This document shows positions 1,433 to 63,761 of a DNA stretch of 64,000 nucleotides, piece by piece. Under the pieces are notes generated by a model, which saw only the letters and a list, made by a program, of their open reading frames with translations, made no database searches and was not told where the DNA came from. Made by a program: the position numbers and the translations under genes. This DNA comes from Verrucomicrobiota bacterium (lineage in GTDB: Bacteria; Verrucomicrobiota; Verrucomicrobiia; Limisphaerales; JACQFS01), in contig JACQFS010000134.1 in the NCBI GenBank assembly GCA_016199935.1, positions 28,519 through 92,518 on the forward strand, written 5' to 3'. How positions within the stretch are numbered: the stretch's first letter is position 1; each line of letters begins with the position of its first letter.

Positions 1433-1490
1433 TCCGATGCGACCGCGCTGCGACGAAAAAGGGGACGTAGGCGAAAAATTTGGGCGAAAA

Positions 1491-3464
1491 ATGTTTCTCA
1501 AATTTTTCGCCCCGATTTTTTGCCTCCTCTTCTGCCCGTCCCTGTTCGCGGCTCCGGCGCCGCTGCAACTCATCGTGATGGACCCGCTGGCGTTGCAGCT
1601 TTCCTGCGCGTGCGTGAAGGGAACGGGCCAGCGGCGCTACAACGATCTCGCGGCGCATCTGGAAAAATCCCTCGGCCGCCCCGTCAAGGTCACCTACGAC
1701 GAAAGCCTCGAACTCGCCCGCCAGCAGACGCGCGGCGTCGCGGACCTCATCATCGGCCAGGACTCGGTCGTGCGCGGTGACGCGGCGAAGCTGAAGCTCG
1801 CGGTGCGTCCGCTCGCGGCGCTCACCAACCAGCGCGGCGACACGACGCTCAAAGGCGTGTTCCTCGTGCGGAAAAACTTTCCCGCCCGTTCGCTCGCGCA
1901 CCTCGCGGGCAAGCGCGTCAGCCTCGGGCCGGTCGAGGACGAGGAGACGCACGCCGCCGCGCAGCGCGCGCTCGCGGCGGCGAACATCCACGCGAACTTC
2001 AGGACCGCCGCGAGCATTGACGCCGCTGCGCTCGCGATGAACGACGGCGAGACCGACGCCGCGGTGGTTTCCGATTTTCTCCCGCCGTTGCTCGAAGGCT
2101 GCGGCAAGCTCGACCGGGGTTCGTTTCAAATCATCGGCGAGACGGAGTCGGTGCCGTTCATCCGCGTCTTCGCCAGTGACGCGGTGGACGCGGCGCTGGA
2201 GGCGAAAATCACCCGTGCGCTGTTCGACGTCGCGAAGGACGCGAAGCTGCTCGCCGCGCTCGAAAGCAAGTCGGGCTTTGTCCCATTGCGCGAGGAGGCG
2301 GTCACGGCGTGGACCGACTGGCGCGGGCCGGGGCGCGCGGGCTTCGTGCCGCAACTGCCGCGCGCGCTGCCGGACCAACTCTCGCCGCTGTGGGCGACGA
2401 TGCTCACCGGGCCCGCGATGGCGGGCGTGGCGGCGACGGAGCAGTTCGTCGTCGTGCCGGACAAGTCAGCGGATTTTCAAAAAGACGTGTTCAGTTGCCT
2501 CGACGCCAAAACCGGCGGCGTGAGGTGGCAGCTTGCTTACGCCGCCCCGGAGGAGGTGGATTACTCGAACGCCCCGCGCGCGACGCCGGTGATCCACGAC
2601 GGCCTCGTGTATTTGCAAGGCGCGCTCGGGCATTTGCACTGCGTCGAGTTGGCGACGGGCAAAGTGATTTGGAAAGCGAACGTCTTCGCCGACTTCGGCG
2701 CGCAACGCATCACGTGGGGATGCTCCATCGCGCCGCTCGTCGTGGACGACAAGCTCATCATCGCCCCCGGCGCGAAGGACGCCGCCGTGGTCGCGCTCGA
2801 TCGCAAGACGGGCAAGGTGATCTGGAAAACGCCGGGCCACGCGGCGGCGTATTCGGCATTCATCTCCGGCACGTTCGACGGCGTGCGGCAGATCATCGGC
2901 TTCGATGTCGCGGGCATCGGTGGCTGGGATCCGGCGACGGGCAAACGTTTGTGGGAAGTCGTGCCGACGGACGGCGCGGATTTCAACGTCATCACGCCCG
3001 TCGTGCTGGGCGACCAGTTGCTCCTCGCCGGCGAGAACAACGCGACGCGGCTGCACAAGTTCGACGGCCACGGCAAACTCGTCGCCGCGCCGGTGTTGAA
3101 GAACAAGGACCTGGCGCCCGACACCTGCACGCCCGTCGTCGTGAACGGAAAAATTTTCGGCACGGCCTATGGTGACTTGTTCTGCGTGGACGCGACGACG
3201 TTGAAGACGCTCTGGCGGCAGACCGACGAGATGTTTCACGACCACGTCACGCTCGTCGCCGGCAAGGATCGCGTGCTGGTGTGGACGATGTCGGGCGACC
3301 TCCTGCTCCTGGACGCGACCGCGGCGGAATACAAAGTGATCTCGAAGCTGCGCCCGTTCACGGACAAGCATCCCGACTCGATGGCGCACCCGGCGTTCGT
3401 CGGCGACCGGATGTATCTGCGCTCGAAGACGCAACTGATCTGCGTGCGGTTGCCATCTCCGTAA
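1491..3464 (+). CDS. Fusion of a PhnD-like periplasmic binding domain with a PQQ/BamB-like beta-propeller
   Basis: ATG 1491 starts a signal peptide (MFLKFFAPIFCLLFCPSLFAAP). N-terminal ~280 aa look like a PhnD-type binding protein (LQLIVMDPLA, KGVFLVRKNFPARSLAHLAGKRVSLG). The C-terminal part carries repeated G.V.W blade motifs (GGVRWQL, GKVIWKA, GKVIWKT, GKRLWEV, LKTLWRQ). Confidence 0.65.
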   Translation: MFLKFFAPIFCLLFCPSLFAAPAPLQLIVMDPLALQLSCACVKGTGQRRYNDLAAHLEKSLGRPVKVTYDESLELARQQTRGVADLIIGQDSVVRGDAAKLKLAVRPLAALTNQRGDTTLKGVFLVRKNFPARSLAHLAGKRVSLGPVEDEETHAAAQRALAAANIHANFRTAASIDAAALAMNDGETDAAVVSDFLPPLLEGCGKLDRGSFQIIGETESVPFIRVFASDAVDAALEAKITRALFDVAKDAKLLAALESKSGFVPLREEAVTAWTDWRGPGRAGFVPQLPRALPDQLSPLWATMLTGPAMAGVAATEQFVVVPDKSADFQKDVFSCLDAKTGGVRWQLAYAAPEEVDYSNAPRATPVIHDGLVYLQGALGHLHCVELATGKVIWKANVFADFGAQRITWGCSIAPLVVDDKLIIAPGAKDAAVVALDRKTGKVIWKTPGHAAAYSAFISGTFDGVRQIIGFDVAGIGGWDPATGKRLWEVVPTDGADFNVITPVVLGDQLLLAGENNATRLHKFDGHGKLVAAPVLKNKDLAPDTCTPVVVNGKIFGTAYGDLFCVDATTLKTLWRQTDEMFHDHVTLVAGKDRVLVWTMSGDLLLLDATAAEYKVISKLRPFTDKHPDSMAHPAFVGDRMYLRSKTQLICVRLPSP

Positions 3465-17142: not shown

Positions 17143-17438
17143 GGCGAGCGCGCAGGAAAACGGAATCGCGTGAGAGACCAGCGTGAAGGAACGGAGAAAG
17201 GGTTTCAGCGAGAGTATCACAATCACAATATGCTTGTGAGACGCTGCGAGTGCGGCCCCGGCTACGCCAGAAGCGGCTTCACCACATTTCCATGCACGTC
17301 GGTCAGCCGGTAGTGGCGGCCCTGGAATTTGTAGGTGAGGCGTTCGTGGTCAATGCCGAGGAGGTGCAGCACCGTGGCCTGGAAATCGTGGACGTGGACT
17401 TTGTTCTCGATGGCGTTGAAGCCGAATTCGTCGCTCGC
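17143..17438. repeat. Direct repeat copy B (~296 bp)
   Basis: Partner of 14742-15031. It contains the intact DUF1501 3' end plus a degraded copy of the hydrolase gene start. Confidence 0.85.
17146..17220 (-). pseudogene. 5' relic of the 963-aa hydrolase gene
   Basis: Reverse strand reads GTG ATA CTC TCG CTG AAA CCC TTT..., versus GTG ATG CTT TCG CTG AAC CCC TTT at 14819. The ATG has become ATA and only ~25 codons are retained. Confidence 0.7.
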
Positions 17439-18749
17439 GCCGTAGCTCAAACCGGGCTTCACGCCGCCGCCCGCCATCCAGAGCGTGAACGCGTAGGGAT
17501 GATGGTCGCGGCCCCATTGCTTGGTCTCCTCGATCTTGCCCTGCAGAAACGGCGTGCGCCCAAACTCGCCACCCCAGATGACGAGCGTGTCGTCGAGCAG
17601 GCCGCGTTGCTTGAGGTCCTGCACCAGCGCGGCGCTCGGGGCGTCCACGTCGGTGCACTGGATTTTGAGCTGGGTGTTGAGGTTGCGATGCTGGTCCCAG
17701 CCGGCGTGCATGAGCTGGATGAACTTCACGCCGCGCTCGGCGAGCCGGCGGGCCATGAGGCAGTTGTAGGCGTAGCTGCCCTGCCGCCGCACGTCGGGGC
17801 CGTAGGCGTCGAGGGTGGACTGCGGTTCCTTCGAGAGGTCGGTGAGTTCGGGCACGCTGGCCTGCATCTTGTAGGCCATCTCGTATTGCGCGATGCGCGT
17901 GGCGATTTCCGGGTCGCCGAATTCGCGCAGCTTCAGCTCGTTCAACCGCGCGAGGTCGTCGAGGATGCCCCGGCGCACTTCGCGGCTCATGCCGTCGGGG
18001 TTCGAGAGGTAAAGCACCGGGTCGCCGCTGCCGCGGAATTTCACGCCCTGAAATTTCGACGGCAGAAATCCGCTGCCCCAGTAGAAGTCGTAGAAAATCT
18101 GGCCGCAGCTCGCCTCCTTGTCGCGCGAGGTCATCACGACGAACGACGGCAGCTCCTGCGTGTCAGTGCCAAGGCCGTAGGTGAGCCACGCGCCCATGCT
18201 CGGGCGGCCGGCCATCTCGGAGCCGGTGAGGAAAAACGTGATGCCGGGCGCGTGGTTCACGGCCTCGGTGTGCATGGACTTGATGAAGCACAGGTCGTCG
18301 GCGATGGCCGCGGTGCGCGGGAGGAAATCGCTCACCCACGCGCCGCTCCGGCCGTGCTGCTTGAAGTTCGTGATCTCGCCGAGCACCGGGCGCGCGGTCT
18401 GGCTGCCGGTCATCGTGCTGAAGCGCCGTCCGCCCACGACCTCGTCGGGAATCTGTTTGCCGTGCCACTCCTTGAGCTTGGGCTTGTAGTCGAACAAGTC
18501 CACGTGCGACGGCGCGCCGTTTTGGAAGAGGTAGATGACGCGCTTGGCCTTCGGGGCGAAGTGCGGGAGGTCGGGCAAGCCGCTGGAGAAGTTTTGAGTT
18601 TTGAGTTTTGAGTTTTGAGTTGGGGCGGCTGCGCCGAACGCCTCGCGATTCAGCAACGAGGCCAGCGCCGCGGTGCCGAGGCCCATGGCGCTGCGGCCGA
18701 AGAATTGCCGGCGCGTGAGGAAGGCCTGGTGATCGAACAGCGGGTTCAT
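17262..18749 (-). CDS. DUF1501-family (sulfatase-fold) protein, Tat-secreted
   Basis: Tat motif TRRQFFGRSAMGLGTAAL. PHFAPKAKRVIYLFQNGAPSHVDLFDYKP; MHAGWDQHRN; C-terminal [20 protein letters not shown]. Confidence 0.9.
   Translation of the reverse strand: MNPLFDHQAFLTRRQFFGRSAMGLGTAALASLLNREAFGAAAPTQNSKLKTQNFSSGLPDLPHFAPKAKRVIYLFQNGAPSHVDLFDYKPKLKEWHGKQIPDEVVGGRRFSTMTGSQTARPVLGEITNFKQHGRSGAWVSDFLPRTAAIADDLCFIKSMHTEAVNHAPGITFFLTGSEMAGRPSMGAWLTYGLGTDTQELPSFVVMTSRDKEASCGQIFYDFYWGSGFLPSKFQGVKFRGSGDPVLYLSNPDGMSREVRRGILDDLARLNELKLREFGDPEIATRIAQYEMAYKMQASVPELTDLSKEPQSTLDAYGPDVRRQGSYAYNCLMARRLAERGVKFIQLMHAGWDQHRNLNTQLKIQCTDVDAPSAALVQDLKQRGLLDDTLVIWGGEFGRTPFLQGKIEETKQWGRDHHPYAFTLWMAGGGVKPGLSYGASDEFGFNAIENKVHVHDFQATVLHLLGIDHERLTYKFQGRHYRLTDVHGNVVKPLLA
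18591..18625. repeat. Heptamer tract (GTTTTGA)x4 plus a degenerate fifth unit, inside the DUF1501 CDS
   Basis: Four perfect 7-bp units at 18591-18618, then GTTGGGG. On the coding strand it reads (TCAAAAC)n and encodes QNSKLKTQN. Confidence 0.9.
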
Positions 18750-34125: not shown

Positions 34126-35492
34126 TTGGGAATCTTGGGCGCATCCGGCAACACGGCGATGCGGAAGAAATGCACGCGGCCCCTGGATTCCGCGCCGGGG
34201 ACGGCGTTCACGACCTCGGTGAAGGAGCCGATGATCAAACCTTCGGGGGTGATCTCGCGGCAGCCGCCGACGGCGTAGGGCTGGAGAAAAGTTTCGCTCA
34301 CCGCGTGGTCGTGCCACGTCGCGCCGTTGTCGTCGCTGCGGAGGCAGCCGAGGCGCAAGGGTGCCTTAGCCGTGTGGCCGATGACGAAGAGCGGGCCGCC
34401 GTTGGTGCGCGTGGACGAAGCGAGGAAGCCGTCGCCCACGTTCAGTGAAATCGTTTCGCCCCGCAATTCGGGCGCGTGGTCCAGCTCGCGTTTGCCCGTG
34501 GCCACGTCGAAGCGGACGTGGTGCTGGCGCACCGGCTCGGTCCGGGCCGCGTAAATGAAGTGCGCCTTGCCGTCCTTGGTGAGCGCGTTGGCGAGCCACG
34601 TCGAGGGCGTGAATTCGTCGTCGAGCGTGATGCGGTCGCTCGGGCCGGTTTCATCGGCGGCGATGGGCGGCGTGAGTTTTCTTCCGGCGAACGTTTGCCA
34701 CGTCGCGCCGCCGTCGGGTGATTGCAAATGATGGATGCCCCAGTAGGTCCAGTGGCCCTGCGGCGGGACGAACAGCGAAGTCCACGCGGCGTGCAGCGTG
34801 CCGTCGGGCGTGAGGTTCAGGTGCGTGTATTCCTGCACGGCGGTGCCGCCCTTTTTCAGCAGCAGCGTGGAGGATTTCACCGCGCCGTCGAGGCCGAAGC
34901 GGATGAACCAGCCGCTGTGCGAGAAATAGCAGACCTGGCCGCGCGGCTCGTCGAGCGCCATGGAGTATTTGCCGGCGGCCGTCTTCGGCACGCGCGTGAG
35001 GTGCGGCGTCCGGTAATCCTCCGCCGCGAGGAAGCGGTGGAGCAGCACGTCGAGATTCACGAAGTCGGGCCGGCCGAGGTAGACGTTGTCCTGCGAATCC
35101 GTTTCGAGCACGGGCGGGTTCGTGGCGTCCGTGGCCTCGAAGAGCGTCTGAAAAGTTTTCCCGCCATCCTTGCTCCACGAGAGCCGCCACTGTTGCGCGG
35201 TCATCTTTTCGTTCCGTGTGCGCACGTGCGTCAGGAAGATGCCGCGCCGGTTGCGGACGACCTTCTGGTTGTTGCTTTGAAACGTGGCGCTGTGGATCGC
35301 GTTGGAATCCACGAGCGTGGTCTCGATGCTGGTGGGCGCGGCGGCGGCGAAGGTCAAAGGACAAAACTCAAAGTTCAAGGGAAAGCCCAAGAGCCAACAG
35401 CCCAATGCCAGCCAGGTGTGCGCGCGGCGGAGCGTTGAGATTTGAACGTTGGAACTTCCCTTGAGCTTTAGTCCTTGAGCTTGGTGCTTCAT
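34122..35492 (-). CDS. Asp-box (BNR/sialidase-fold) beta-propeller protein, full-length paralog
   Basis: Asp-boxes SKDGGKTF, SPDGGATW, SDDNGATW; collinear with 24474..25748. ATG 35492 preferred over the TTG at 35513. The N-terminal ~55 codons lie in a 7-bp-periodic, lower-GC tract. Confidence 0.75.
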   Translation of the reverse strand: MKHQAQGLKLKGSSNVQISTLRRAHTWLALGCWLLGFPLNFEFCPLTFAAAAPTSIETTLVDSNAIHSATFQSNNQKVVRNRRGIFLTHVRTRNEKMTAQQWRLSWSKDGGKTFQTLFEATDATNPPVLETDSQDNVYLGRPDFVNLDVLLHRFLAAEDYRTPHLTRVPKTAAGKYSMALDEPRGQVCYFSHSGWFIRFGLDGAVKSSTLLLKKGGTAVQEYTHLNLTPDGTLHAAWTSLFVPPQGHWTYWGIHHLQSPDGGATWQTFAGRKLTPPIAADETGPSDRITLDDEFTPSTWLANALTKDGKAHFIYAARTEPVRQHHVRFDVATGKRELDHAPELRGETISLNVGDGFLASSTRTNGGPLFVIGHTAKAPLRLGCLRSDDNGATWHDHAVSETFLQPYAVGGCREITPEGLIIGSFTEVVNAVPGAESRGRVHFFRIAVLPDAPKIPK

Positions 35493-42354: not shown

Positions 42355-43650
42355 CTACGCAGCTTGTGCCGCTTCGGTTCTCACCAATCGTTCGTGCCAA
42401 GTAATGTAGTCTGTATCAAATGCCAACTGGGCTGCCTTTTCCGCCAGTTGCTTCGCTTCCGCAAACTCCTCAGGTTTGTTCTCCAACCTCCACAGGTGCC
42501 AAACCGCCTTTGAAGCCTCATAGCACGCGCGGGCGGAGTAAACAGGATCACGATGCGCCATTGCTTGTTTTAGCAATTGAATCGCTTCACGAATGCGGCA
42601 AGCCCTTTCGTCCAAATTGCTCTCATGCTCTGCAGCACGCCATAGAGCCGCACCGTGCTTCGATCTTGCGACATCGTTGTAGAATCGGATGTCCTTTGAA
42701 GACGCAAGCTCTCCGAATAGGCGAGCAGATTCCGTGTAATCGCGACCGCGAAAAGCATCCTCGGCCTTTGTGCGGAGCGCTTCCGGCTTGAGTTTTTCTG
42801 GTTCTGACTGCTCTTCTGGCTGCGCCAGCGTAACTGGAGGGGATGCGGCCGGCTTCTCGGGCGCAGCAACCTCTGCTTGTTCCTTCTTTGGAATCCACGG
42901 CGTAAGTGTTCCGGCAGGCACGGAAAGCTCAACGACCGGTTCGACCTCCGCCGCAAAACGGTGAAACTCGCCAATTAGTTCAGCTTCGGGATCGCTACGA
43001 AGTTCTGGCACACGAAATAGCAAGGCGACCTTGAGTTCACCATCTAGCCGAACGAACGGGTTTGCAGACCACTTGAGTTCTGAAGCTGAATCACTGACTG
43101 GGTCCACCCACACAAATCTTGTGTCACGGTTGGAACTGTCTTGCGATGGCCCGAACTCGCAGGCACCTGTAACCCAGTAGCGGCCAGCTTCTAGTTTTCC
43201 CTTTAATGGCGAATGCCACTCCGTGGCTCGCACATCTTCGCGAGGGTTCTTTTTGAAGCTCTCTGCGTGTGGCGTAAGCAAATCCAAAAGTTCCGCACGC
43301 AAACCGGTGTGCAGATCTTCGATCACCTTCTCCGGCAGCGGAACGTGAGCAATTTTATTCCGCAGGGCGTTAATGGCATTGAACCGTTGGACTCGCGTCA
43401 ATTTCTGACCGTATGCCGACGGGACATTTCCGATTCGCTGCCAAGCCTGGAGAAAGGCCACTGGTTCAGAACTCTGGAATGTCAGGAAATCCTTGAGCGC
43501 TTTGCAAAAGGCGCAGTTCTCCGGAGCTTCGGTTGTTCCAAAGCGGTTCAAGAGGTCAATCCAAGCGCCAATGCTACCACCCATGCATCCGGAGCCAATC
43601 GAGTCGCCTGATTCGGCCTCATCGAGGACACCTTCACGCAAGCCCGTCAC
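42355..43650 (-). CDS. Hypothetical three-part protein: N-terminal HEPN-like helical domain (Rx4H), central beta-rich domain, Pro/Glu linker, C-terminal TPR-like helical repeats
   Basis: RFNAINALRNKIAHVPLP contains the R-N-x-x-x-H (Rx4-6H) signature at the expected position of a ~140-aa helical domain. Visibly lower GC than its neighbours (28/60 and 33/60 in lines 42361 and 42421). GTG 43650 has GAGG 4 nt upstream; alternative ATG at 43584. Confidence 0.5.
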   Translation of the reverse strand: MTGLREGVLDEAESGDSIGSGCMGGSIGAWIDLLNRFGTTEAPENCAFCKALKDFLTFQSSEPVAFLQAWQRIGNVPSAYGQKLTRVQRFNAINALRNKIAHVPLPEKVIEDLHTGLRAELLDLLTPHAESFKKNPREDVRATEWHSPLKGKLEAGRYWVTGACEFGPSQDSSNRDTRFVWVDPVSDSASELKWSANPFVRLDGELKVALLFRVPELRSDPEAELIGEFHRFAAEVEPVVELSVPAGTLTPWIPKKEQAEVAAPEKPAASPPVTLAQPEEQSEPEKLKPEALRTKAEDAFRGRDYTESARLFGELASSKDIRFYNDVARSKHGAALWRAAEHESNLDERACRIREAIQLLKQAMAHRDPVYSARACYEASKAVWHLWRLENKPEEFAEAKQLAEKAAQLAFDTDYITWHERLVRTEAAQAA

Positions 43651-46345
43651 AAGACCTCGCAAGTCGTTGAGTCGGGGTGTGCAGCTTGAATCTTTTTCCC
43701 AAAGCTGCAATAGCCGACACGCCAAGGCAGAACCGGGCGAGTTTCTCGTTGCGCTTGGATTCGCCGACGGTGAGGAGTTTCTGCGCGGCGTCCGCGTCGG
43801 CGGTGAATTGCTGCTGCAAGGCGTCGAGGCGGGCGAGGAGGATTTTCTTTTCGGCGGCGGTCGGCTTGCGCGCGAGGACGAGGCGGAAGGCTTGTTCGAG
43901 GCGCGCGTCGGCCTTGGGCGCGGCAAGCATCACGCGCTCGGCCAGGGCGCGGGCGGCTTCGACGTAGGTGATGTCGTTGAGCGTGGAGAGCGCGTGGAGC
44001 GGGGTGTTGGTGCGCTTCTGTTTCACCTCGCAGACCTGCCGCGCGGCGCTGTCGAAGAACATCGTGGGGCCGACGATGCGCCGCCAGAAGACGTAGAGGC
44101 TGCGGCGGTAGAGCGCGTCGCCGTGATCCTGCTTGTAGGTCTTCTTGCCAAAGGTCGCCTCCTCCCAGATGCCCTCGGGTTGATACGGCTTCACGGACGG
44201 GCCGCCGCGCTGGTCCACGAGCAGGCCGCTGGCGGCGAGCGCGACGTCGCGGAGCATCCACGAGGGCATCCGGTAACGTGGGCCGCGCGCGATCAGGCGG
44301 TTCTCCGGGTCGCGCTCGACGAGCGCGGGCGTCACGCGCGAGGACTGGCGGTAGGTCGCGCTCATCACGATGAGTTTCACCAACGCCTTTACGTTCCAGC
44401 CTTGGCCGGATTCGGATTGAACAGGAGCAAACGGAGGCAACGGAGAATTTTCTCTGTTCGCTCCGTTTCCTCCTGTGGATTTTTCCGGCGTCATGAACTC
44501 GACCGCCAGCCAGTCGAGCAGCTCAGGATGCGAGGGCTTCTCGCCCTGCACGCCGAAGTCCTCGGCGGTCTTCACGAGGCCGGTGCCGAAGAACATCTGC
44601 CAGTAACGGTTCACGGTGACGCGGGCGGTGAGCGGATTCTCCGGCGAGACGAGCCAGCGGGCGAGGTCGAGGCGGTTCGCTCGTTCGCCGGTAGCAGCCG
44701 AGGTGACGAGGCTCTGACTTTTTTTCTCCGCGTTCCGCGTTCCGCGTTCCGAGTTTGAAGAGAGCCTCCTTACGTTGGCTGCTACCAGGGAGGCGGGCAT
44801 CGCGGCCACGACTTTGTTCGTCGTCGCTTTGTCGTAGGCGCCTTTGACGAGGATGAAGGTGTCGCGCGGTTTTTCCAACTGATCCATGATCATCACCTTG
44901 GTGATGTTGTTCTGCGCAGCGTCGCGCGCGCGGACGGCGGCGAGAAGTTTCTTCAACACTTTCACGTAGTCGGCGTCCTTGCCGTCGGTTTCGAAGTAGC
45001 CGATGGCTTCGAGGATGGCGTCCACGCCGCGTTTGGCGGGCTCGGCCTTGGCGAGCGTGGCGGGGAGGTTGCCGGGAAGCTTGGCCGCGTCGGACTCGGT
45101 GAGCGGCCTGCCCTCGGGGCGGGGAAATTTCTTCAACTCGAACGCCTCCACCTCGGTCACCACCTTCGCGAGTTGTTGGCGCGCCACTTTCACCTTGTCC
45201 TCCTCGGCGGGCGTGGAGAAATCAAGGATCGGCGGAGCCTGGCCGCCGCGGCCCTGGCCGGTCTCGGACATCTGGTTGAAGATGTCGTAGAGGCCGAAGT
45301 AGTCGCGCTGGGTGAACGGGTCGAACTTGTGATCGTGGCAACGCGAGCAGGTGAACGTGACGCCCAGCCAAATGGTCGCGGTGGTCTCGACGCGGTCAAA
45401 GACGTTCTCGACGCGCGTCTCCTCGGGGATGCGGCCGCCCTCGCCGTTGTGCATATTGTTCCGATTGAAACCAGACGCGAGCTTCTGCTCGCGCGTGGCG
45501 TTGGGCAGGAGGTCGGCAGCGAGTTGCTCGATGGTGAACTGGTCGTAGGGCTGGTTCACGTTGAACGCGTTCACGACCCAGTCGCGCCACGGCCACATCG
45601 TGCGCTCGGGATCGCCTTGGAAGCCGTTTGAGTCGGCGTAGCGCGCCGCGTCGAGCCAGTCCCAGGCCATGCGCTCGCCGTAGCGCGGCGACTTGAGCAG
45701 GCGGTCCACGATCCTCTCGTAGGCGTCCGGCGATTTGTCCGCGAGGAAGGCGTCCACTTCCTCCGGCGTCGGCGGCAGGCCGGTGAGGTCGAGCGTGATG
45801 CGGCGAATCAAAGTTTCCTTCGGCGCTTCGGGTGAGGGTTTCAGACCTTCGCGCTCCAAACGGGCAAAGATGAAGTTGTCGATGGGATTGCGAATGACGA
45901 ATGACGAATGACGAATGGGCGGAACCGCGGGTCGTTGTGGAACTTCGTAGGCCCAGTGCTTTCCCCACTTCGCTCCTTCCTCGACCCAGCGCTTGAGCAA
46001 CTCGATCTGCGCGGGTGTGAGTTTGCGATTCGATTTGGGCGGAGGCATCACGTCGTCCGCGTCCTTCGTCGTGATGCGGCGGACCAGTTCGCTCTTCGCG
46101 CTTTTGCCCGGAATGATGATGGGATCCTTCGTCCGCAGCGCGTCCTCCTGCTTGTCGAGGCGCAGCTTGGCCTCGCGCGCCTTTTCGTCGGGGCCGTGGC
46201 AGTGGAAGCAGTTGTCCGAAAGAACCGGGAGGATGTCGCGGGAGAAATTGATCTCCGGCTTGGGTGCGGCGGCGCGCGTGTGAAACGCGAACAGCAACGT
46301 CAAGGCGGCGAACGCAACGGCGAGTTGGCGAAAGGCGGTGCTCAT
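43634..46345 (-). CDS. PSCyt1 / DUF1549 / DUF1553 (PSD1) protein (copy B) with an atypical C-terminus and three embedded micro-repeats
   Basis: [19 protein letters not shown]; [14 protein letters not shown]; [11 protein letters not shown]. The C-terminus ...[35 protein letters not shown] departs from the family ending seen in copies A and C. Confidence 0.85.
44405..44489. repeat. 85-bp imperfect palindrome embedded in-frame in PSD1 copy B
   Basis: Arms 44405-44447 and 44450-44489, centred on GAGAA-TT-TTCTC. The inner 26 bp pair at 22 positions and the outer GCCGGA/TCCGGC ends pair. It encodes [26 protein letters not shown]. Confidence 0.8.
44727..44754. repeat. Heptamer tract (TCCGCGT)x3 + TCCGAGT inside PSD1 copy B
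   Basis: The coding strand reads AACTCGG AACGCGG AACGCGG AACGCGG and encodes SERGTRNAE. Confidence 0.9.
45891..45918. repeat. Heptamer tract (CGAATGA)x3 + CGAATGG inside PSD1 copy B
   Basis: The coding strand (TCATTCG)n encodes [13 protein letters not shown], an apparent 7-aa duplication-like insert just before the conserved RNPID motif. Confidence 0.9.
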
Positions 46346-46425
46346 GGAACGGCGACAGTCTAGCACACGGGTCCGCCGCCGAAATAGCTAAAGCTGCCGC
46401 GGGCGATGCAGAATCCTGCGGTGGC

Positions 46426-53060: not shown

Positions 53061-53145
53061 TCAACGCAAAGGCGCAAAGACGCGGGAAGAGCAAATGAAA
53101 CGAAGCCCAACTTCCTCCGCTTGCGCCTTTGCGTCTTTGTGTTGA
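53061..53145. repeat. Imperfect inverted repeat built from 8-bp-periodic CGCAAAGN words, in the rnd / acyl-CoA-ligase divergent spacer
   Basis: Left arm TCAACGCAAAGGCGCAAAGACGCGGGAAG (53061-53089). Reverse complement of the right arm (53111-53145) is TCAACACAAAGACGCAAAGGCGCAAGCGGAGGAAG. Related words recur at 48185-48218. Confidence 0.6.
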
Positions 53146-53158
53146 AAAATTCCTTCCG

Positions 53159-54715
53159 ATGGCGGGGGTTCCAGCTAAAGGGTGGACACCGAACGGCGTT
53201 GTCGTTTCAATCGCGCCCATCAAGACGCCCTACGAGCACGACAATCTGCACGCCGCCTTGGCCGCGACCGTCGCGCGCGCACCGGGGAAGGTGGCGGTGA
53301 CCTGGGGCGACGAGGCGTTCACCTACGCGCGGGTTGCGGCGCAGGCGCTCGCGCTCGCGGCGAAATTGCGCGCCGAGTTCGGCGTGCGCGCCGGCGACCG
53401 GGTCGCGGTGTGGGTGAAAAATTGCCCGCAGTTTCCGTCGGCCGTCTTCGGCGTGTGGCAGGCGGGCGGCGCGGTGGTGATGGTCAGCAATTTCCTCAAG
53501 CCCGACGAGGTGGCCTACATTCTCGGGGACTCCGGCGCGAACGTCGTGCTCTCCGACCACAGCCTCGCCGAGCCGCAGGCGAAGCTGCGCGCGCTGCGGC
53601 CGGAGCTGCGCTTCGCTTTCATCGAAGACTTTTCCGACGAGGCTCCCGCCGATTTCTCCCCGGCCACGCAGACGAAGGCCGACCTCGCCGCCTTGCTCTA
53701 CACCTCGGGCACCACGGGCCGGCCCAAGGGCGCGATGCTCACGCACGGAAATTTTCTGCACAACGTCACGAGCTGCCTCACCGCGCTCGATGTCCACGAG
53801 ACCGACCGCATCGTGGTGCTGCTGCCGCAGTTTCACAGCTTCATGTTCACCGTGGGCACGCTGCTGCCGCTACTGGCGGGCGCGGGCGTGCTGCTGCTCA
53901 AGACGCTCCATCCCTTCAAGCACGTGCTGGAGGAAATCGCGCGCCATGGCGGGACGCTGCTGCCGGCGGTGCCGTCGTTTTACCGGACGGTGTGCGCGGT
54001 GCCGGAGTTCGGGAAACTGCCGCTGCGCCTGTGCATCAGCGGCGGCGCGCCGTTGCCGCTGGAGGTGTTCAAGGAGTTCACGGCGAAATTTTCCTTCCGC
54101 CTCCGCGAAGGCTACGGGCCGACCGAGAGCAGCCCGGTCGCGACGGTCAATCCCATCTTCGGCGAGAACCGCCCCGGGTCGGTGGGCGTGGCGATTCCGA
54201 ATGTGGAGTTGAGCATCCGCGACGAGGCCGGCGGTGAGCTGCCCATCGGCGCGAAGGGGGAGCTTTGCATCCGCGGCGGCAACGTGATGCGCGGCTACTG
54301 GAACCAGCCGGAGGAAACGGCGAAGACCATCCGCGACGGCTGGCTCTACACCGGCGACGTGGGCCACCGCGACGCCGACGGCTATTTTTTCATCACCGAC
54401 CGCAAGAAGGATATGCTGCTGGTCAACGGCCTCAATGTTTATCCGCGCGAGGTCGAGGAGGTCATCCACCAGTTTCCCGGCATCAAGGAGGCGGCGGTGA
54501 TCGGCGTGCCGGACGCGCGGCGCGGCGAGGCGCCGGTGGCGTTCGTGGCGCTGACCGAGGGCGCGGCGCTGGCGGAAAAGGAGCTGCTCCACTTCCTACG
54601 CGAGCGGCTGGCGGACTACAAGGTGCCGCGGCAGGTGAACGTGCTGCCCGCGCTGCCGCGCAACGCGACGGGGAAAATCCTCAAGACCAGTCTGCGGGAG
54701 ATGGTGAAGGGCTGA
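53159..54715 (+). CDS. AMP-dependent acyl-CoA synthetase / long-chain fatty-acid-CoA ligase
   Basis: AMP-binding motif LLYTSGTTGRPKGAMLTHGN; GYGPTESSP; YTGDVGHRDADGYFFITDRKKDML; C-terminal PRNATGKILK. Confidence 0.9.
   Translation: MAGVPAKGWTPNGVVVSIAPIKTPYEHDNLHAALAATVARAPGKVAVTWGDEAFTYARVAAQALALAAKLRAEFGVRAGDRVAVWVKNCPQFPSAVFGVWQAGGAVVMVSNFLKPDEVAYILGDSGANVVLSDHSLAEPQAKLRALRPELRFAFIEDFSDEAPADFSPATQTKADLAALLYTSGTTGRPKGAMLTHGNFLHNVTSCLTALDVHETDRIVVLLPQFHSFMFTVGTLLPLLAGAGVLLLKTLHPFKHVLEEIARHGGTLLPAVPSFYRTVCAVPEFGKLPLRLCISGGAPLPLEVFKEFTAKFSFRLREGYGPTESSPVATVNPIFGENRPGSVGVAIPNVELSIRDEAGGELPIGAKGELCIRGGNVMRGYWNQPEETAKTIRDGWLYTGDVGHRDADGYFFITDRKKDMLLVNGLNVYPREVEEVIHQFPGIKEAAVIGVPDARRGEAPVAFVALTEGAALAEKELLHFLRERLADYKVPRQVNVLPALPRNATGKILKTSLREMVKG
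54647..54715. repeat. Direct repeat copy 1 (last 22 codons + stop of the acyl-CoA ligase gene)
   Basis: 64 of 69 positions are identical to 55380-55448 by hand alignment. Confidence 0.9.
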
Positions 54716-55379: not shown

Positions 55380-55448
55380 CCCGCGCTGCCGCGCAACGCG
55401 ACTGGGAAAATCCTCAAGACCAGTCTGCGGGAGATGGCGAAGGGGTAG
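55380..55448. repeat. Direct repeat copy 2 (orphan copy of the acyl-CoA ligase 3' end, ends in TAG)
   Basis: Would encode PALPRNATGKILKTSLREMAKG*, versus ...REMVKG* in the real gene. No upstream ligase sequence is attached. Confidence 0.9.
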
Positions 55449-55495
55449 CGGACGGCTGCCCAAGCGGAGGTGTGTTGCGAGCCGCCCATCCGGGC

Positions 55496-55747
55496 GAACG
55501 GGCGGGCCGGGCGCACGAACGGCTCGTCCGTTGGGACGAACGGATGGTCCGTTCGTGCCAACGGATCATCCGTCAGGACAAACGGGCCGTCCGTTCGTGC
55601 GAACGGCTCATCCGTCCGGACGAACGGACCGTCCGTTCGTGCCAACGGATCGTCCGTCCGGACGATCGGGCCGGCCGGGCGCACGAACGGCTCGTCCGTT
55701 GGGACGAACGGATGATCCGTCAGGGCCAACGGATCGCCCGTCAGGCC
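55496..55747. repeat. Tandem array of 12 x 21-bp dyad-symmetric units with a 168-bp higher-order repeat
   Basis: Units start at 55496, 55517, 55538 ... 55727 (exact 21-bp phasing). Cores are AACGG-N-CCGTT or ACGGA-N3-TCCGT. Unit 2 equals unit 10, and units 1-4 resemble units 9-12. No spacers. Confidence 0.95.
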
Positions 55748-56333: not shown

Positions 56334-57506
56334 ATGTCGCAACAACTTGCCTACGTCATCATCACCCCCTACACGCTGTCCAAGTCACGGACGGGAGGGG
56401 TCATCGCCCGGCTCATCACGCGCACCGGGCTGGACCTGTGCGGTGCGCGGATGTTCGCCCCGAGTGCCGAGCTGGTGAAGCAATACGCGGAGGCCACGGT
56501 CTCCGCCAACGATCCGCAGGACCGGAAAATTCAGGAGCAGATCCGGGATTACATCCTCCAAAACCTTTCGCCCGACCCGAAGACCGGCCGTCGCCGGCGC
56601 GTGATGATGCTGATCTTCCGCGGCGAGGATGCGGTGCGCAAAGTCCGCTCCGTGGTCGGCAACATCACCGGCAACCGCCGTGGCGGCGAAAGCATCCGCG
56701 ACACGTTCGGCGATTACGTGACGGATGAAAGCGGCAACGTGCGCTACTTCGAGCCCGCCGTGCTCGCCGCGCCGAACGCCGAGGAGTGTGAGGCGAAGCT
56801 CAAGCTCTGGACGCGTTACTCGGACACCGACGGCGGCACGATGGACAACACGCTCACCTACGCCACGGACGAGAAGCCGCAGCGCACGCTGGTGCTGATC
56901 AAGCCGGACAATTTCAAGTTCCCGACTGGCCGGCCCGGCAACGTGATTGATTTCTTCAGCCGCACCGGCCTCTACATCGTGGCGATCAAGGTCCACCGCA
57001 TGAGCACGGCGCAGGCGATGGAGTTCTACGGACCGGTGCGCGAAGTTCTGCGCACGAAGCTCAAGGACGTGGTCTCGGGCAAGGCGAAGGCCGCGGTCGA
57101 GAAGGAGCTGGGCTTCGCGATTCCGGCCGACGCGCAGAAGCAGCTCGGCGACGTGCTCGGGCCGCTGTTCGGCGACAACCAGTTCGACAACATCGTGCGC
57201 TTCATGTCGGGCCGCTCGGAGAAGGAATGCCCGCCCGCCGAGTTGAACCAGCCCGGCAGCGAGAAGTGCATCGCGCTCGTGTATGAAGGCGTGGACGCGG
57301 TGAACAAAATCCGCGACGTGCTCGGTCCGACGGACCCGTCGAAGGCGCCGCCCGGCTCGATCCGGCGCGAGTTCGGCTCGAACATCATGGTGAACGCCGC
57401 CCACGCGAGCGACGCGCCCGAAAACGCGCAGCGCGAGATGGGCATCGTGAAGGTGGAGGAGAACACCTTCCGCCGGGCGGTGGAGGAAGTTTACGGGAAG
57501 GTCTAG
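56334..57506 (+). CDS. Tandem nucleoside-diphosphate-kinase-like protein (degenerate N-domain + His-containing C-domain with a large insert)
   Basis: C-domain: TLVLIKPDNF, GPTDPSKAPPGSIRREFG, NAAHASDAPENAQREM (NDK active-site His context). The N-domain has the same fold pattern (LAYVIITPYT...SIRDTFG) but no His at the equivalent position. Confidence 0.75.
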   Translation: MSQQLAYVIITPYTLSKSRTGGVIARLITRTGLDLCGARMFAPSAELVKQYAEATVSANDPQDRKIQEQIRDYILQNLSPDPKTGRRRRVMMLIFRGEDAVRKVRSVVGNITGNRRGGESIRDTFGDYVTDESGNVRYFEPAVLAAPNAEECEAKLKLWTRYSDTDGGTMDNTLTYATDEKPQRTLVLIKPDNFKFPTGRPGNVIDFFSRTGLYIVAIKVHRMSTAQAMEFYGPVREVLRTKLKDVVSGKAKAAVEKELGFAIPADAQKQLGDVLGPLFGDNQFDNIVRFMSGRSEKECPPAELNQPGSEKCIALVYEGVDAVNKIRDVLGPTDPSKAPPGSIRREFGSNIMVNAAHASDAPENAQREMGIVKVEENTFRRAVEEVYGKV

Positions 57507-57560: not shown

Positions 57561-57962
57561 TCAGCCCCAGAGCGAGGTGTTGCTCCGCAGCTTCTCCAGC
57601 AGCCGCGCGTCCGCGGCAGGAAACTCGTAGTCGGCCAATTCCCCCGCCGTCACCCACGCGACCGCGTGGCAGCCGAGCGGCTGCGGCTCGCCGGATTCCA
57701 GCGCGCAGCGGAAAAATTCCAGATGCACCGACTTTTCCGGGTAATCGTGTGCGATGGATTCGATGACCTCGCCGACGCGCACCTCGATGCCGAGTTCCTC
57801 GCGCAGTTCGCGCCGCAGACATTCAGCGAAGCTCTCGCCCGCCTCGCGTTTGCCGCCGGGAAATTCCCACAGCCCGCCCAGATGCGCGCCGGGCTTGCGC
57901 TGGGTGATGAGGAGTTTGCCACTGCGAAAGACGAGGCCGGCGGCGACTTCGATGCGGGTCAT
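57561..57962 (-). CDS. mutT: Nudix hydrolase, MutT-like (8-oxo-dGTP diphosphatase type)
   Basis: ATG 57962. Nudix box GGKREAGESFAECLRRELREELGI. 133 aa. Confidence 0.8.
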   Translation of the reverse strand: MTRIEVAAGLVFRSGKLLITQRKPGAHLGGLWEFPGGKREAGESFAECLRRELREELGIEVRVGEVIESIAHDYPEKSVHLEFFRCALESGEPQPLGCHAVAWVTAGELADYEFPAADARLLEKLRSNTSLWG

Positions 57963-58035
57963 GCGTAATCCGTAATGAGCAATGCGCAAGCCGGCAAGCT
58001 CACTCGCGCATTACGGATTACTCCTTACTCCTTAC
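57963..58035. repeat. Palindromic element of the GTAAGGA/GTAATCC heptamer family (copy 1), between ugd and mutT
   Basis: Perfect 13-bp stem 57965-57977 (GTAATCCGTAATG) with 58009-58021 (CATTACGGATTAC). The right arm continues as TCCTTACTCCTTAC and overlaps the ugd stop codon. Confidence 0.8.
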
Positions 58036-59321: not shown

Positions 59322-59435
59322 TCTTGTTCGTGATTGCGATGCGTTAAACGTTCCGTTCCAAACGTTGCGAATTGCGAAACCAGCTAGTCCCGTGCCGAAA
59401 AACCACGCGCCCGGCATTTGGGCCGGCGACCGCGC

Positions 59436-61422: not shown

Positions 61423-61429
61423 ACGTGAC

Positions 61430-61502
61430 GAGTAAGGAGTAATCCGTAAGAAAAGAGCCGCCCTCCCCTTCCCCATTACGGATCACTCCTTACGCCTTAC
61501 TC
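61430..61502. repeat. Palindromic element of the GTAAGGA/GTAATCC heptamer family (copy 2), between nuoA and the PGM/PMM gene
   Basis: 18-bp stem 61432-61449 (GTAAGGAGTAATCCGTAA) with 61476-61493 (TTACGGATCACTCCTTAC), 1 mismatch, 26-nt loop. The right arm matches copy 1 at 25 of 27 positions. Confidence 0.85.
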
Positions 61503-61511
61503 TCCACCCCC

Positions 61512-62942
61512 ATGACCATCAAATTCGGCACCTCCGGCTGGCGCGGCCTCATCGCCCGCGACTTCACTTTTGAAAATGTCCGCGTCGCCGCGCAGGGCAT
61601 CGCGGACTACCTGAACGCGGAACGCGGAACTCGGAACTCAAAACTGCACGGCCGCAAACCCGTCGTCATCCTCGGCCACGACACCCGCTTCCTCGGTCGC
61701 GAGTTCTCGCTCGCCGCCGCCGAGGTGCTCACGGCCAGCGGCCTCCAATGTCTCCTCTGCCAGCGCGACGCGCCGACGCCCGTCATCAGCCACACCATCC
61801 GCGACCGGCAGGCCATCGGCGGCATCAACATGACCGCCAGCCATAATCCCGCCGAGTGGCAGGGCCTGAAATTTTCCACCTACAACGGCGCGCCCGCCAC
61901 GCCCGAGGTCACGCAGCAGATCGAAGCCGCCATCGCGAAACGTCAGGCCGAAGGCTGGAGCTTCAAGTCCGCCGTCGTCGGCACCTTCTCCTGCCCGACC
62001 ATTGATCCGCAGCCGAGCTACTTCAAACAGCTCCGCTCCCTCATTGATTTCAAGACCATCAAAAAGGCGAAGCTCAAGATCGCCGTCGAGCTGATGTATG
62101 GCACCGGCCGCGGCTACCTCGACACGCTGCTCGCCGGCGCGGGCGCCAAGATCACCGTCTTCCACGGCGCGCCCGACCCGCTCTTCGGCGGCCATCATCC
62201 CGAGCCGAACGCCGAGGGCATGACCGAGGTCAGCAAATTCGTCCGCCGCGGCCAGGCGCAGTTCGGCCTCGGCCTCGACGGCGACGCGGACCGTTTCGGC
62301 ATCGTGGACAAGGACGGCACGTGGCTCACGCCCAACCAGATTCTCGCGCTCGCCCTTTATCATCTGAAGAAAAACCGCGGCTGGACCGGCGCCGCCGTGC
62401 GCACCGTGCCGACAAGCCATCAAGTGGACGCCGTTGCGGAAATGCTCGGCGTGAAACTCCACGAGACGCCCGTCGGTTTCAAATATATCGGCGCGCTCAT
62501 GGAGTCCGAGCCGATCATCGTCGGCGGCGAGGAGAGCGGCGGCCTGAGCGTGAAGGGCCACGTGCCCGAGAAGGACGGCGTGCTCGCCTGCCTGCTCATG
62601 GCCGAACTCGTCGCGACCGAGAAGAAATCCCTCGGCCAGATTCTCAAGCAGCTCGAAAAGCAGACCGGCGAATTCCACAGCGACCGCATCAACGTGAAGA
62701 TTGCCCCCGAGAAAAAGGACGCGCTGCTCAAGAAACTCTCCGCCGGCCTCGACAACGTGGGCGGCCTCAAGGTGGAGAAGTTCATCACCACCGACGGCTA
62801 CAAGTTTCTCCTGCCGAACCGCGAGTGGGTCGCGTTCCGCGCCAGCGGCACCGAGCCGCTCATCCGCTGCTACATCGAGGCGAAGTCCGTGAAGCAGATG
62901 AAGAAGCTCCAGGACGCCTGCAAAAAAATCCTGCTCGGCTGA
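61512..62942 (+). CDS. Phosphoglucomutase / phosphomannomutase family protein
   Basis: TASHNPAEWQGLKF (phosphoserine loop). GLDGDADRFGIVD (Mg site). GGEESGG (sugar loop). RASGTEPLIRCY (phosphate loop). Confidence 0.9.
   Translation: MTIKFGTSGWRGLIARDFTFENVRVAAQGIADYLNAERGTRNSKLHGRKPVVILGHDTRFLGREFSLAAAEVLTASGLQCLLCQRDAPTPVISHTIRDRQAIGGINMTASHNPAEWQGLKFSTYNGAPATPEVTQQIEAAIAKRQAEGWSFKSAVVGTFSCPTIDPQPSYFKQLRSLIDFKTIKKAKLKIAVELMYGTGRGYLDTLLAGAGAKITVFHGAPDPLFGGHHPEPNAEGMTEVSKFVRRGQAQFGLGLDGDADRFGIVDKDGTWLTPNQILALALYHLKKNRGWTGAAVRTVPTSHQVDAVAEMLGVKLHETPVGFKYIGALMESEPIIVGGEESGGLSVKGHVPEKDGVLACLLMAELVATEKKSLGQILKQLEKQTGEFHSDRINVKIAPEKKDALLKKLSAGLDNVGGLKVEKFITTDGYKFLLPNREWVAFRASGTEPLIRCYIEAKSVKQMKKLQDACKKILLG
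61613..61647. repeat. Heptamer tract GAACGCG GAACGCG GAACTCG GAACTCA AAACTGC inside the PGM/PMM CDS
   Basis: Exact 7-bp phasing. It encodes ERGTRNSKLH, inserted in the N-terminal loop ADYLNA-[..]-GRKPVVILGHDTR. Confidence 0.9.
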
Positions 62943-63464: not shown

Positions 63465-63761
63465 TCACTTTTTTTCAGCCGGTGGCGCGGCGGCGATCTT
63501 CTTGAGGTATTTGGCGGGGTCGGCCTTGAACTCCTTCAGGCAGGACGGGCAGCACATTTTGATCTCCTGCCCCTCGTGGACGAACACGTAGGGCTTGCCC
63601 ATGCTGCCGAGCTTCTCGCCGGAGACGACGCAGGCCGTCAGGGTGGCGGGCCAGGGTTTGGGTTTGTCCGCCTTCGTCGCGTCAGCCGAGAAGGCGGCGA
63701 GGGGCGCGGCGAGGAGGGCGGCGGCGAGGAACCAACGGGCGGCGGGCTTGAACAGTTTCAT
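63465..63761 (-). CDS. Small secreted YHS/TRASH-like Cys-motif protein
   Basis: ATG 63761 gives MKLFKPAARWFLAAALLAAPLAAFSA (signal). C-terminal YVFVHEGQEIKMCCPSCLKEFKADPAKYL resembles the YHS-domain pattern (Y.F C..C...F...P..Y). Confidence 0.55.
   Translation of the reverse strand: MKLFKPAARWFLAAALLAAPLAAFSADATKADKPKPWPATLTACVVSGEKLGSMGKPYVFVHEGQEIKMCCPSCLKEFKADPAKYLKKIAAAPPAEKK

Follow-up and report, generated by a model that had tools for sequence, protein, structure and literature searches.

Did the run of tandem heptanucleotides found inside a bacterial housekeeping gene come in as an inserted element, or did it grow at the place where it now stands? The question was raised by a stretch of 64,000 nucleotides (nt) from a Verrucomicrobiota bacterium of the order Limisphaerales (NCBI GenBank assembly GCA_016199935.1, contig JACQFS010000134.1, positions 28,519 to 92,518 of the forward strand), hereafter called the window. 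In this window a gene of the phosphoglucomutase/phosphomannomutase (PGM) family, located at 61512..62942 on the plus strand, contains at 61613..61647 the successive units GAACGCG (twice), GAACTCG, GAACTCA and AAACTGC. An earlier note, made by a model from the sequence alone, had described this tract as a repeat inserted in frame and as the anchor of a repeat family seen across the window. Our analysis showed that the tract belongs to a period-7 class that runs through the Limisphaerales/Pedosphaera lineage (Verrucomicrobia subdivision 3). It is probably a slipped-strand heptanucleotide microsatellite filtered by selection, of which the copy in the window is partly decayed.

The heptanucleotide tract in the PGM gene

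The PGM gene encodes a protein of 476 amino acids (aa) with all four PGM_PMM domains of Pfam (PGM_PMM_I-IV), and the tract, which encodes aa 34-46 (NAERGTRNSKLH), lies in frame, a point of the earlier note on which the sequence, Tandem Repeats Finder (TRF), autocorrelation and Pfam agree. TRF reported a period of 7 with 3.6 copies and 94% matches at 61613-61637, and the period-7 autocorrelation of the 35-nt segment was 0.82, a value equalled by 0 of 2,000 shuffles. The 476-aa open reading frame (ORF) is a 100% match to an NCBI protein of a Verrucomicrobia metagenome-assembled genome (MAG); the protein cluster holding the window sequence has one member, and the best homologs come from Verrucomicrobia, Pedosphaera and Limisphaerales MAGs. 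In an AlphaFold model of the protein (mean pLDDT 80, pTM 0.83), residues 20-39 form a helix, 40-50 a coil and 51-56 a strand, which places the tract at the end of helix 1 and in the loop that follows. As RNA the tract is unstructured (fold z = +1.4). Only 2 of its units are perfect and the other 3 are variants; it is probably a partly decayed and less mutable member of its class. A metagenome scan using the flanks of the tract found no matching sequence.

Excess of period-7 repeats in the window and in related genomes

The earlier note had proposed that an excess of period-7 repeats be tested against shuffled sequence. We counted exact self-match runs of at least 10 bases and took the expectation from 100 dinucleotide-preserving shuffles. 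In the window, which has a G+C content of 64%, 6 runs of period 7 were observed against 0.19 expected, and the excess was upheld. No other period among 4-13 showed an excess in the window; the signal at period 14 is explained as a harmonic. Of the six runs, the GC-rich one at 793-809 (GGCGGGC) may reflect base composition.

For comparison, one scan of species-representative genomes gave 80 loci of Limisphaerales/Pedosphaera with a PGM of 76-86% identity, amounting to 1.25 Mb. These loci contained 58 exact runs of period 7 by the same length threshold, compared with 4-8 runs at each of the periods 5, 8, 10, 11 and 13 and 14-25 at the coding periods 3, 6, 9 and 12. The bias towards period 7 thus characterises the lineage and not just the window. 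Head-to-tail units of 7 nt were reported by TRF at 61613-61637, 44727-44755, 45891-45917, 18590-18621 and 58018-58035 in the window; period 7 is over-represented at many loci in both the window and the 1.25 Mb of relatives; and copy number varies among close strains, at the PGM tract of a related species and at the DUF1501 tract of the window (see below). The assignment of the window tracts to a class resembling the short tandemly repeated repetitive (STRR) sequences, made in the earlier note, is supported by the period-7 excess.

The PGM loop is a hot spot for heptamer tracts across the order

The PGM tract is no insertion peculiar to this genome. It lies between Y-L and GHDTRF, in a segment that is 20 aa long in 67 of 79 orthologs, 12-15 aa long in 11 and 24 aa long in one. 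The long form has about 9 residues more than the Thermus protein 1tuo, the closest solved structure, and because the loop length is the same in 67 of the orthologs, these extra residues are old.

In 23 of the 79 species the period-7 score of the loop was at least 18 of 21, against a maximum of 12 and a mean of 7.3 among 1,579 control segments of the same genes. The "decayed" loops had a mean score of 9.6, and 41 of the 79 species scored 12 or less; no period besides 7 gave such scores in these species. The 23 near-perfect tracts are built from 12 different units, among them (GAACTCC)4 in L020, L023 and L030, (GAAATCG)4-5 in L010, L024 and L026, (GAAATCC)3-5 in L062, L069 and L070, (GAACGCG)3 in L037, (GTCACTC)n in L056, L066 and L073, (CAAAGTC)4 in L042, (CAAAACT)n in L043 and L048, and (CTCAACY)n in L058 and L068. 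The PGM loop is an order-wide hot spot for heptamer tracts.

The identity of the unit does not follow phylogeny. Among pairs of PGM genes with an identity of 0.75-0.9 at 4-fold sites, 1 of 6 has the same unit and 5 differ; the same unit was found in 5 of 57 pairs at 0.65-0.75 and in 11 of 189 pairs below 0.65. Identical units in diverged species were considered as evidence of selection, a reading that was set aside: once ascertainment bias is removed, a common unit is found in 6-9% of the diverged pairs, and most of the close pairs have different ones. Even within protein clusters of 90% identity the whole loop was found to be swapped, with a length difference of 7 aa (NSELRTPNSELHGRKPV versus FKVQSPKSKV or TSSPATRHSSLV). 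The residues of the loop co-vary as N-S-E-L, K-S-E-I and N-A-E-R, and in exactly these sets the first two codons and the next two make up a proto-repeat of 7 nt (AAN1 N2CN GAA N1N2C); such co-variation is predicted by homogenisation at the DNA level and not by selection at the protein level. The limited vocabulary of units at this site is likewise explained if the units are seeded by the flanking codons.

Length alleles of the PGM tract in a related population

The earlier note had also asked whether tract length varies among strains. At 90% identity, the Pedosphaera protein whose gene carries (GAAATCG)n clusters with proteins of 408 aa and 471 aa encoded on long contigs, and the DNA of these was aligned. 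Five independent Pedosphaera assemblies differ from one another by 2-5 single-nucleotide polymorphisms (SNPs) over 7.2 kb (99.9% identical). L026, which represents the species, is 9-11 SNPs away from them, and relative to it the PGM tract is the sole internal indel of the five. The reference allele of L026 has 5 units and is in frame (478 aa). Three assemblies (L086, L087 and L090) carry a -7 nt allele of 4 units, which is frameshifted with a stop at aa 106; L088 carries a -14 nt allele of 3 units, frameshifted with a stop at aa 53; and L089 carries a -21 nt allele of 2 units, which is again in frame (471 aa). Counted by contig, this population has about 25 full-length alleles, 4 frameshifted alleles and 1 allele of -21 nt. 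In this related species, then, the tract does vary in steps of 7 nt and yields null alleles of pgm.

Alleles of different length can be nearer to each other (2 SNPs) than alleles of the same length (5 SNPs), and this incongruence of tract length with SNP background suggests recurrent events. Collapse of the repeats during assembly is implausible, because the tracts are at most 35 nt long, far below the k of 141 implied by the k141_ contig names; typical read lengths are also far above 35 nt.

A second metagenome scan, aimed at the species with (GAACTCC)n, gave one contig only, which has the reference length. In a lineage whose PGM loop has (GAACGCG)3, with the same unit as the window, contig L092 (ENA sample ERZ28573621) has at about 2930-3010 a pgm broken by a 43-nt deletion directly after the tract. 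The deletion lies at a CCCGG/CCTGG microhomology and represents a second, non-repeat route to a pgm null allele, which means that loss of pgm may simply be tolerated. The 405-aa protein call P0447 of this lineage had been considered as a frameshift by unit change and was set aside, as its cause is this 43-nt deletion beside the tract.

Heptamer tracts in the DUF1501 and PSD1 proteins

The heptameric tract noted at 18591-18625 is present, as an (AACTCAA)4.7 array at 18590..18625 on the minus strand. It lies in a DUF1501 gene (17262..18749, minus strand), where it encodes TQNSKLKTQN at aa 42-54, after a twin-arginine signal. At this site the window reads CCCC (AACTCAA)4 AACT and its two closest relatives (94.3% and 90.3% DNA identity) read ATCTCAAATCTC and AACTCGAAACTC, that is, CCCC ATCTCAA ATCTC and CTTC AACTCGA AACTC, about 1.7 units each. 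The difference in length is exactly +21 nt, or +3 units and +7 aa, in the window. The tract is a local expansion, by three units, of a proto-repeat that was already there. A target duplication at the tract boundary, for which the earlier note had advised looking, was not found at the "empty site" of the two closest relatives, which holds the 1.7-unit proto-repeat instead. Another member of the 90% cluster of this protein has the same length and reads SPSPISDLRSPRPS, which, from the protein alone, would be the peptide encoded by a heptamer repeat of the TCTCCGA type.

Two further tracts, both listed in the earlier note and both found by TRF, lie in the gene of a PSCyt1/PSCyt2/PSD1 protein (43634..46366, minus strand). 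The tract at 45891..45917 on the minus strand, (CATTCGT)3.9, had been given as (TCATTCG)n at 45891-45918 with no mention that it is coding; it encodes aa 150-159 in the linker between PSCyt1 and PSCyt2. The orthologous linkers have the same length and other peptides of heptamer type (IQNSKLKTQNS, ITRHSSLIKN and IRNPKSEIRN), and the DNA of genomes 84-87% identical carries different units in the same register, ATTCGTC in the window, GTCACTC in L081 and ACTCAAA in L082. The second tract, of (GAACGCG)3 type, is located at 44727..44755 on the minus strand and encodes SERGTRNAE, as had been stated, in a linker at aa 538-547. It sits inside an insertion of 21 aa (63 nt) that only the three closest homologs have, and among the tracts it alone is a true lineage-specific insertion. 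An inverted repeat surrounds it in frame (44685..44791, minus strand; 31-nt arms, 81% complementary; fold z = -4.2).

The same gene contains at 44421-44476 a near-perfect palindrome with 27-nt arms (z = -7.1), an in-frame insertion of 26 aa that splits the PSD1 domain. The orthologs P0123, P0125 and P0129 have unrelated insertions at exactly this site, and the insertion of L081 also has an inverted repeat; the site looks like a hot spot for in-frame hairpin insertions.

Codon phase and composition of the units

That three heptamers equal seven codons had been offered as the reason why reading frames survive, and the +21 nt of DUF1501, the -21 nt of PGM in the related population and the 63-nt insertion of PSD1 bear this out. 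The argument that tracts in unrelated genes share a common origin because they share a codon phase does not hold. As 7 and 3 have no common divisor, any three successive units are between them read in each of the phases, whichever frame is chosen. (GAACGCG)n thus encodes the cyclic heptapeptide ERGTRNA in every frame, each of the other units behaves in the same manner, and the codon phase is uninformative on origin. Nor is the orientation of the AAACTCA, CATTCGT and GAACTCA tracts informative in this respect, being forced by selection, because the antisense strand of each contains TGA (for GAACTCA, TGAGTTC).

The PGM tract also cannot serve as the anchor of a sequence family, as the unit changes from locus to locus and also among orthologous sites. 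At 67 tract sites, the pairs with the same unit within a genome numbered 2 against 0.62 expected, and 2 against 2.18 when one mismatch was allowed; the difference between sharing within and between genomes is not significant, and a genome-specific family of units was rejected. A strict unit motif with a GAA core was likewise rejected: 49% of the units contain GAA/TTC and 51% contain TCA/TGA, compared with 26% and 20% of background heptamers, respectively, a moderate enrichment with no consensus. The units are richer in AT than the genome (51% versus 41%). Within the 64 kb, many near-identical copies as expected of a mobile small repeat, such as a repetitive extragenic palindrome (REP) or its paired form (REPIN), a miniature inverted-repeat transposable element (MITE) or a small dispersed repeat (SDR), were not found, except for one 18-mer common to two hairpins (see below), which is the only evidence of dispersal. 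The defined ends and target-site duplication of such an element were absent from the empty sites of DUF1501, where the gain is exactly 3 units.

Heptamer-periodic hairpins in intergenic spacers

The hairpins described in the earlier note at 57963-58035 and 61430-61502 are real. The latter, at 61425..61500 on the plus strand (z = -6.2), occupies the spacer between nuoA (PF00507), the gene upstream of pgm, and pgm itself; its arms are heptamer-periodic (GTAAGGA GTAATCC GTAA...), the 5' arm being purine-rich and the 3' arm pyrimidine-rich. The other, at 57958..58035 on the minus strand (z = -2.7), begins at the stop codon of ugd and contains tandem TTACTCC at 58018-58035. The two hairpins have an identical 18-mer, GTAAGGAGTAATCCGTAA, in common. 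Neither is among the called terminator-like sites, no T-run occurs in their sequence, and an Rfam search of the window gave no match.

The arrangement nuoA - hairpin - pgm is kept in 57 of 73 loci, as judged from the spacers of L001-L080, about 130 nt before the PGM start. The spacer was delimited in these 57 loci and has a median length of 88 nt. Its fold z is -3 or lower in 31 of the 57, its period-7 score is above that of every coding control in 27, and in 50 the 5' half is richer in purine than the 3' half (57% versus 39%), a strand asymmetry that is not expected of a purely DNA-level palindrome. The arms are tandem heptamers specific to each lineage (GTGAAAC/GTTTCAC, CAGAATT/TTCTGAA, CGTTACA and CTAGAAG, next to GTAAGGA/GTAATCC in the window). 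It is possible that the RNA of the spacer hairpin acts in the processing, stability or translation of pgm. The 3' arm of 61425-61500 reads GGATCACTCCTTA and its 5' arm contains AAGGAG. We take GGATCACTCCTTA to resemble the 3' end of 16S rRNA (GGATCACCTCCTTA), and the hairpin would then pair a Shine-Dalgarno-like with an anti-Shine-Dalgarno-like sequence; the units of other lineages differ, so this may be coincidence.

Period 7 had further been claimed at 35350-35492, at the 5' end of an Asp-box paralog. Both arms of this structure, which lies upstream of the Asp-box gene, are significant, though the overall fold is weak (z = -1.4): the arm at 35350..35405, between two minus-strand genes, reads AAGGTCA AAGGACA AAACTCA AAGTTCA (period-7 signal 0.59, 0 of 2,000 shuffles), and the opposing, partly complementary arm at 35440..35492 is weakly periodic (0.43, P = 0.006). 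Two other proposed tracts were not borne out. The ugd leader at 59329-59382 has no period-7 signal (0.28, P = 0.31), and the 21-bp array at 55496-55747, which had been read as 3x7, consists of palindromic units repeated every 21 bp, and its period-7 signal is lower than random.

Origin of the tracts

The following course of events would account for these observations. A tract would start from a local 7-nt proto-repeat, which the PGM codons AAC-TCC-GAA-CTC (N-S-E-L) already supply as AACTCCG AACTC, and would grow and shrink by slipped-strand mispairing, while neighbouring units would be homogenised, so that the unit sequence drifts en bloc. Coding tracts would survive only in permissive loops and linkers and only on the strand that is free of stop codons, and their frame is kept only where the net gain or loss amounts to three units (21 nt, 7 codons); gaining or losing one or two yields frameshifted null alleles. 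Between genes, inverted pairs of the same repeats would give hairpins with heptamer-periodic arms, and slippage within the arms together with quasi-palindrome correction between them would keep the spacer hairpins both periodic and complementary. The observations behind this reading are the period-7 excess, the conserved sites with different units, the three units gained in DUF1501 and the alleles of 5, 4, 3 and 2 units in the related species; slippage and homogenisation are the mechanism that we infer from them, and we hold the whole, with the window PGM copy as a partly decayed member, to be the probable explanation.

Several points weigh against it. The natural alleles of 5, 4, 3 and 2 units belong to a related species and not to the organism of the window. 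The 18-mer common to the two window hairpins is not explained by purely local slippage. Identical perfect tracts occur in some very diverged species; L010 and L024 have 57% identity at 4-fold sites and yet share 33 identical tract bases. We attribute such sharing to the limited vocabulary seeded by the flanks, with selection or recombination as alternatives. The length of the PGM loop is near constant despite the turnover of units, a combination that would need homogenisation without change of length, for example by transient misalignment or conversion. Finally, why the period should be 7 is not explained by this evidence.

Among other explanations the least improbable is an evolved contingency locus, in which the tract would be kept for reversible ON/OFF switching of pgm and so of the supply of glucose-1-phosphate and UDP-glucose for surface glycans, for instance as bet-hedging against phages; loss of pgm or galU gives phage resistance in several bacteria. 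The PGM tract is a 5' coding simple sequence repeat (SSR), its position at codons 34-46 being typical of phase-variable genes, and in the related species unit changes alter its frame: of about 30 assemblies from one Pedosphaera population, 4 have a frameshifted allele (-7 or -14 nt) as their consensus and 1 has the in-frame -21 nt allele. Near-perfect tracts have also persisted at the site in 23 species in spite of unit turnover. However, the tract is decayed in most species, with 41 of 79 at control-level scores, and imperfect in the window itself; no switch is needed to account for the same class of tracts at aa 150 and aa 538 of the PSD1 protein and in the intergenic hairpins; and the 43-nt deletion that broke pgm in another lineage argues that the loss may be tolerated. 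We therefore regard selection for such switching as unlikely, and the broader proposal of an order-wide, repeatedly regenerated pgm contingency locus in free-living Limisphaerales, perhaps extending to other genes and acting as a putative heritable and reversible sugar-nucleotide switch, as equally so. If it were true, a lineage-specific property of replication or repair would favour slippage by 7 nt and would also build the heptamer-armed hairpins between genes.

An element acting at the RNA level, either an array for a single-strand-binding protein with one cold-shock-type domain per about 7 nt or a regulatory or terminator RNA, would fit the stable fold of the nuoA-pgm spacer in most relatives despite its sequence turnover (31 of 57) and its consistent purine asymmetry (50 of 57), and binding of this kind has been proposed for the TAACTGA repeats (PMC4679880). 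It is at odds with the unstructured coding tract of PGM, with the lack of conservation of coding-tract units, with window hairpins that have no T-runs, were not called terminators and match nothing in Rfam, and with frameshifting length variants, which are unexpected in a conserved binding array. We consider it quite improbable for the tracts as a whole; it may apply to the intergenic hairpins only. A dispersed or mobile family of small elements (STRR/REPIN/MITE-like), with the PGM tract as one insertion, is less probable still. The shared 18-mer, the occurrence of GAACGCG in both PGM and PSD1, the 63-nt lineage-specific insertion with its 31-nt inverted repeat and the second in-frame palindrome at 44421-44476, with unrelated insertions there in orthologs, speak for it. 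They are outweighed by the near-expected sharing of units within genomes and the different units among loci, by the different units at orthologous sites of close relatives, by the gain of exactly three units without target duplication at a DUF1501 site already holding 1.7 units, and by the constant loop length in 67 species; no transposase was linked to the tracts, the window not having been annotated as a whole. Chance, composition or assembly artefact, for which one can cite the GC-rich run at 793-809 and the fact that all data are metagenome assemblies, is effectively refuted by the excess of runs (6, with 0.19 expected), which neighbouring periods do not show, by the presence of tracts at the same sites in dozens of independent assemblies and by tract lengths of at most 35 nt, far shorter than the k of 141.

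Comparison with known heptameric repeats

The window tracts resemble the STRR sequences of cyanobacteria and the long SSRs described by Mrazek in their tandem 7-nt units, present in few to several copies at dispersed loci with different units, and in the over-representation of period 7. STRR sequences in the strict sense reportedly have the consensus units CCCCAGT, TTGGTCA and CAACAGT and are said to be restricted to heterocystous cyanobacteria, according to work by Mazel from 1990. The tracts studied here are not of this kind: of the three consensus units, TTGGTCA was found in one of 84 tracts and the other two in none, and the organism is a Verrucomicrobia MAG. From both STRR sequences and the long SSRs they further differ in that many lie in frame inside conserved genes at order-wide sites, with turnover of the unit at a kept length, and in being found in the Verrucomicrobia, order Limisphaerales. 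In the tolerance of small in-frame palindromic insertions at the protein surface, the PSD1 structures at 44421-44476 and 44685-44791 recall the Rickettsia palindromic elements, which, as Ogata and colleagues are said to have reported in 2000, lie in frame in protein genes in high copy number, with a length of about 100-150 bp and a conserved sequence; the PSD1 insertions, in contrast, have unrelated sequences in the different orthologs, and a family of them was not found. Compared with the contingency loci of pathogens (Haemophilus, Neisseria, Campylobacter), the PGM tract has in common the 5' coding SSR, the unit changes that shift the frame and the near-identical strains differing only at the tract; here, in contrast, the bacteria are free-living and environmental, the unit is of 7 nt and not 1-5, the gene encodes an enzyme of central metabolism, there are only 2-5 units, and reversibility and adaptive value are putative.

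Heptanucleotides were found to be the most abundant class of long SSRs in many bacterial genomes, and polymerase slippage has been proposed as their origin, 7 nt matching the DNA segment held by the polymerase (Mrazek 2007, as summarised in PMC4679880 and PMC4692102). As of 2015 there was no detailed literature focused on heptameric repeats (Rehm et al., PMC4692102). The cases described in detail are the cyanobacterial STRR sequences, GGGAATC/GGGGAYT in Xanthomonas and Nostoc and TAACTGA in Beggiatoaceae; most of them lie between genes, some occur as inverted copies, and they vary among close relatives (PMC4679880, PMC4692102). The GGGAATC / GGGGA(T/C)T repeats are preferentially next to start or stop codons and, like the window hairpins, include inverted pairs able to form stem-loops (PMC4692102), whereas the window-class units are richer in AT than their genome, not prone to form G-quadruplexes and frequent in coding loops. 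The TAACTGA repeats of marine Beggiatoaceae, some cyanobacteria and Bacteroidetes (MacGregor 2015, PMC4679880) are likewise direct repeats of a heptamer, in 2-6 copies, often just upstream of start codons, with occasional copies in ORFs that encode a repeated heptapeptide; there one unit dominates and related heptamers are rarely repeated, while here dozens of units occur, none of them TAACTGA.

A search of the published literature found no description of such heptamer repeats for Verrucomicrobia, in agreement with the earlier note, whose author model knew of none for the superphylum of Planctomycetes, Verrucomicrobia and Chlamydiae. The probable mechanism is the known slippage of heptamers; what is new is the taxon, the frequent in-frame tracts at conserved sites and the turnover of units at constant length, as well as the frameshifting alleles of a core enzyme in a free-living bacterium, for which the Pedosphaera assemblies are direct evidence. 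The phenomenon of heptameric SSRs is extended to the Verrucomicrobia. The same protein loops and the same spacer carrying period-7 tracts with different units in dozens of species amount to a clean natural experiment, in which a coding microsatellite evolves in concert under a frame constraint that leaves three-unit steps alone viable. In a wild population the heptamer tract is the dominant source of indels and makes null alleles of a core enzyme. The correlated changes N-S-E-L, K-S-E-I and N-A-E-R, read as an effect at the DNA level, matter for the inference of selection or co-evolution from loops, and, in annotation, a pgm call of these MAGs that lacks its N-terminus can reflect a frameshift in the tract and not a true start.

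Other repeats in the window and labels of related contigs

The 21-bp array consists of about 12 tandem copies of a palindromic unit (ACGAACGG-N5-CCGTTCGT) at 55486-55745, with TRF periods of 21, 42 and 84. It lies between the gene of an AMP-binding enzyme (53129..54715) and a gene with an NDK domain (56334..57506), where Pfam supports no gene over 1.6 kb. Its spacing of two helical turns and its dyad symmetry suggest a predicted array of binding sites for a dimeric DNA-binding protein. Beside it, at 55380-55448, a short frame ending in LPRNATGKILKTSLREMAKG* looks like the C-terminal tail of an AMP-binding enzyme; since the complete gene of that kind stops 730 nt upstream, the frame may be a remnant.

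At 1469-1525, just inside the start of the ORF 1437..3464, there is an inverted repeat (AGGCGAAAAATTTGGGCGAAAAAT / ATTTTTCGCCCCGATTTTTTGCCT) with 24-nt arms that are 88% complementary, and the arm is itself a direct repeat containing GGCGAAAAAT twice. Tandem repeats with periods of 18 (49880-49961), 20 (46287-46332) and 12/15 (63693-63730) had TRF scores of 73, 57 and 48-50, respectively, and are presumably coding repeats.

Several contigs with a PGM of the Limisphaerales type (79-86% identity) carry organism names in their public titles that are evidently wrong ("uncultured Klebsiella sp.", "Akkermansia muciniphila", "Bifidobacterium sp." or "Chitinophaga pinensis"); the mislabelled contigs include L001, L005, L006, L007, L013, L014, L031, L054, L057 and L061.

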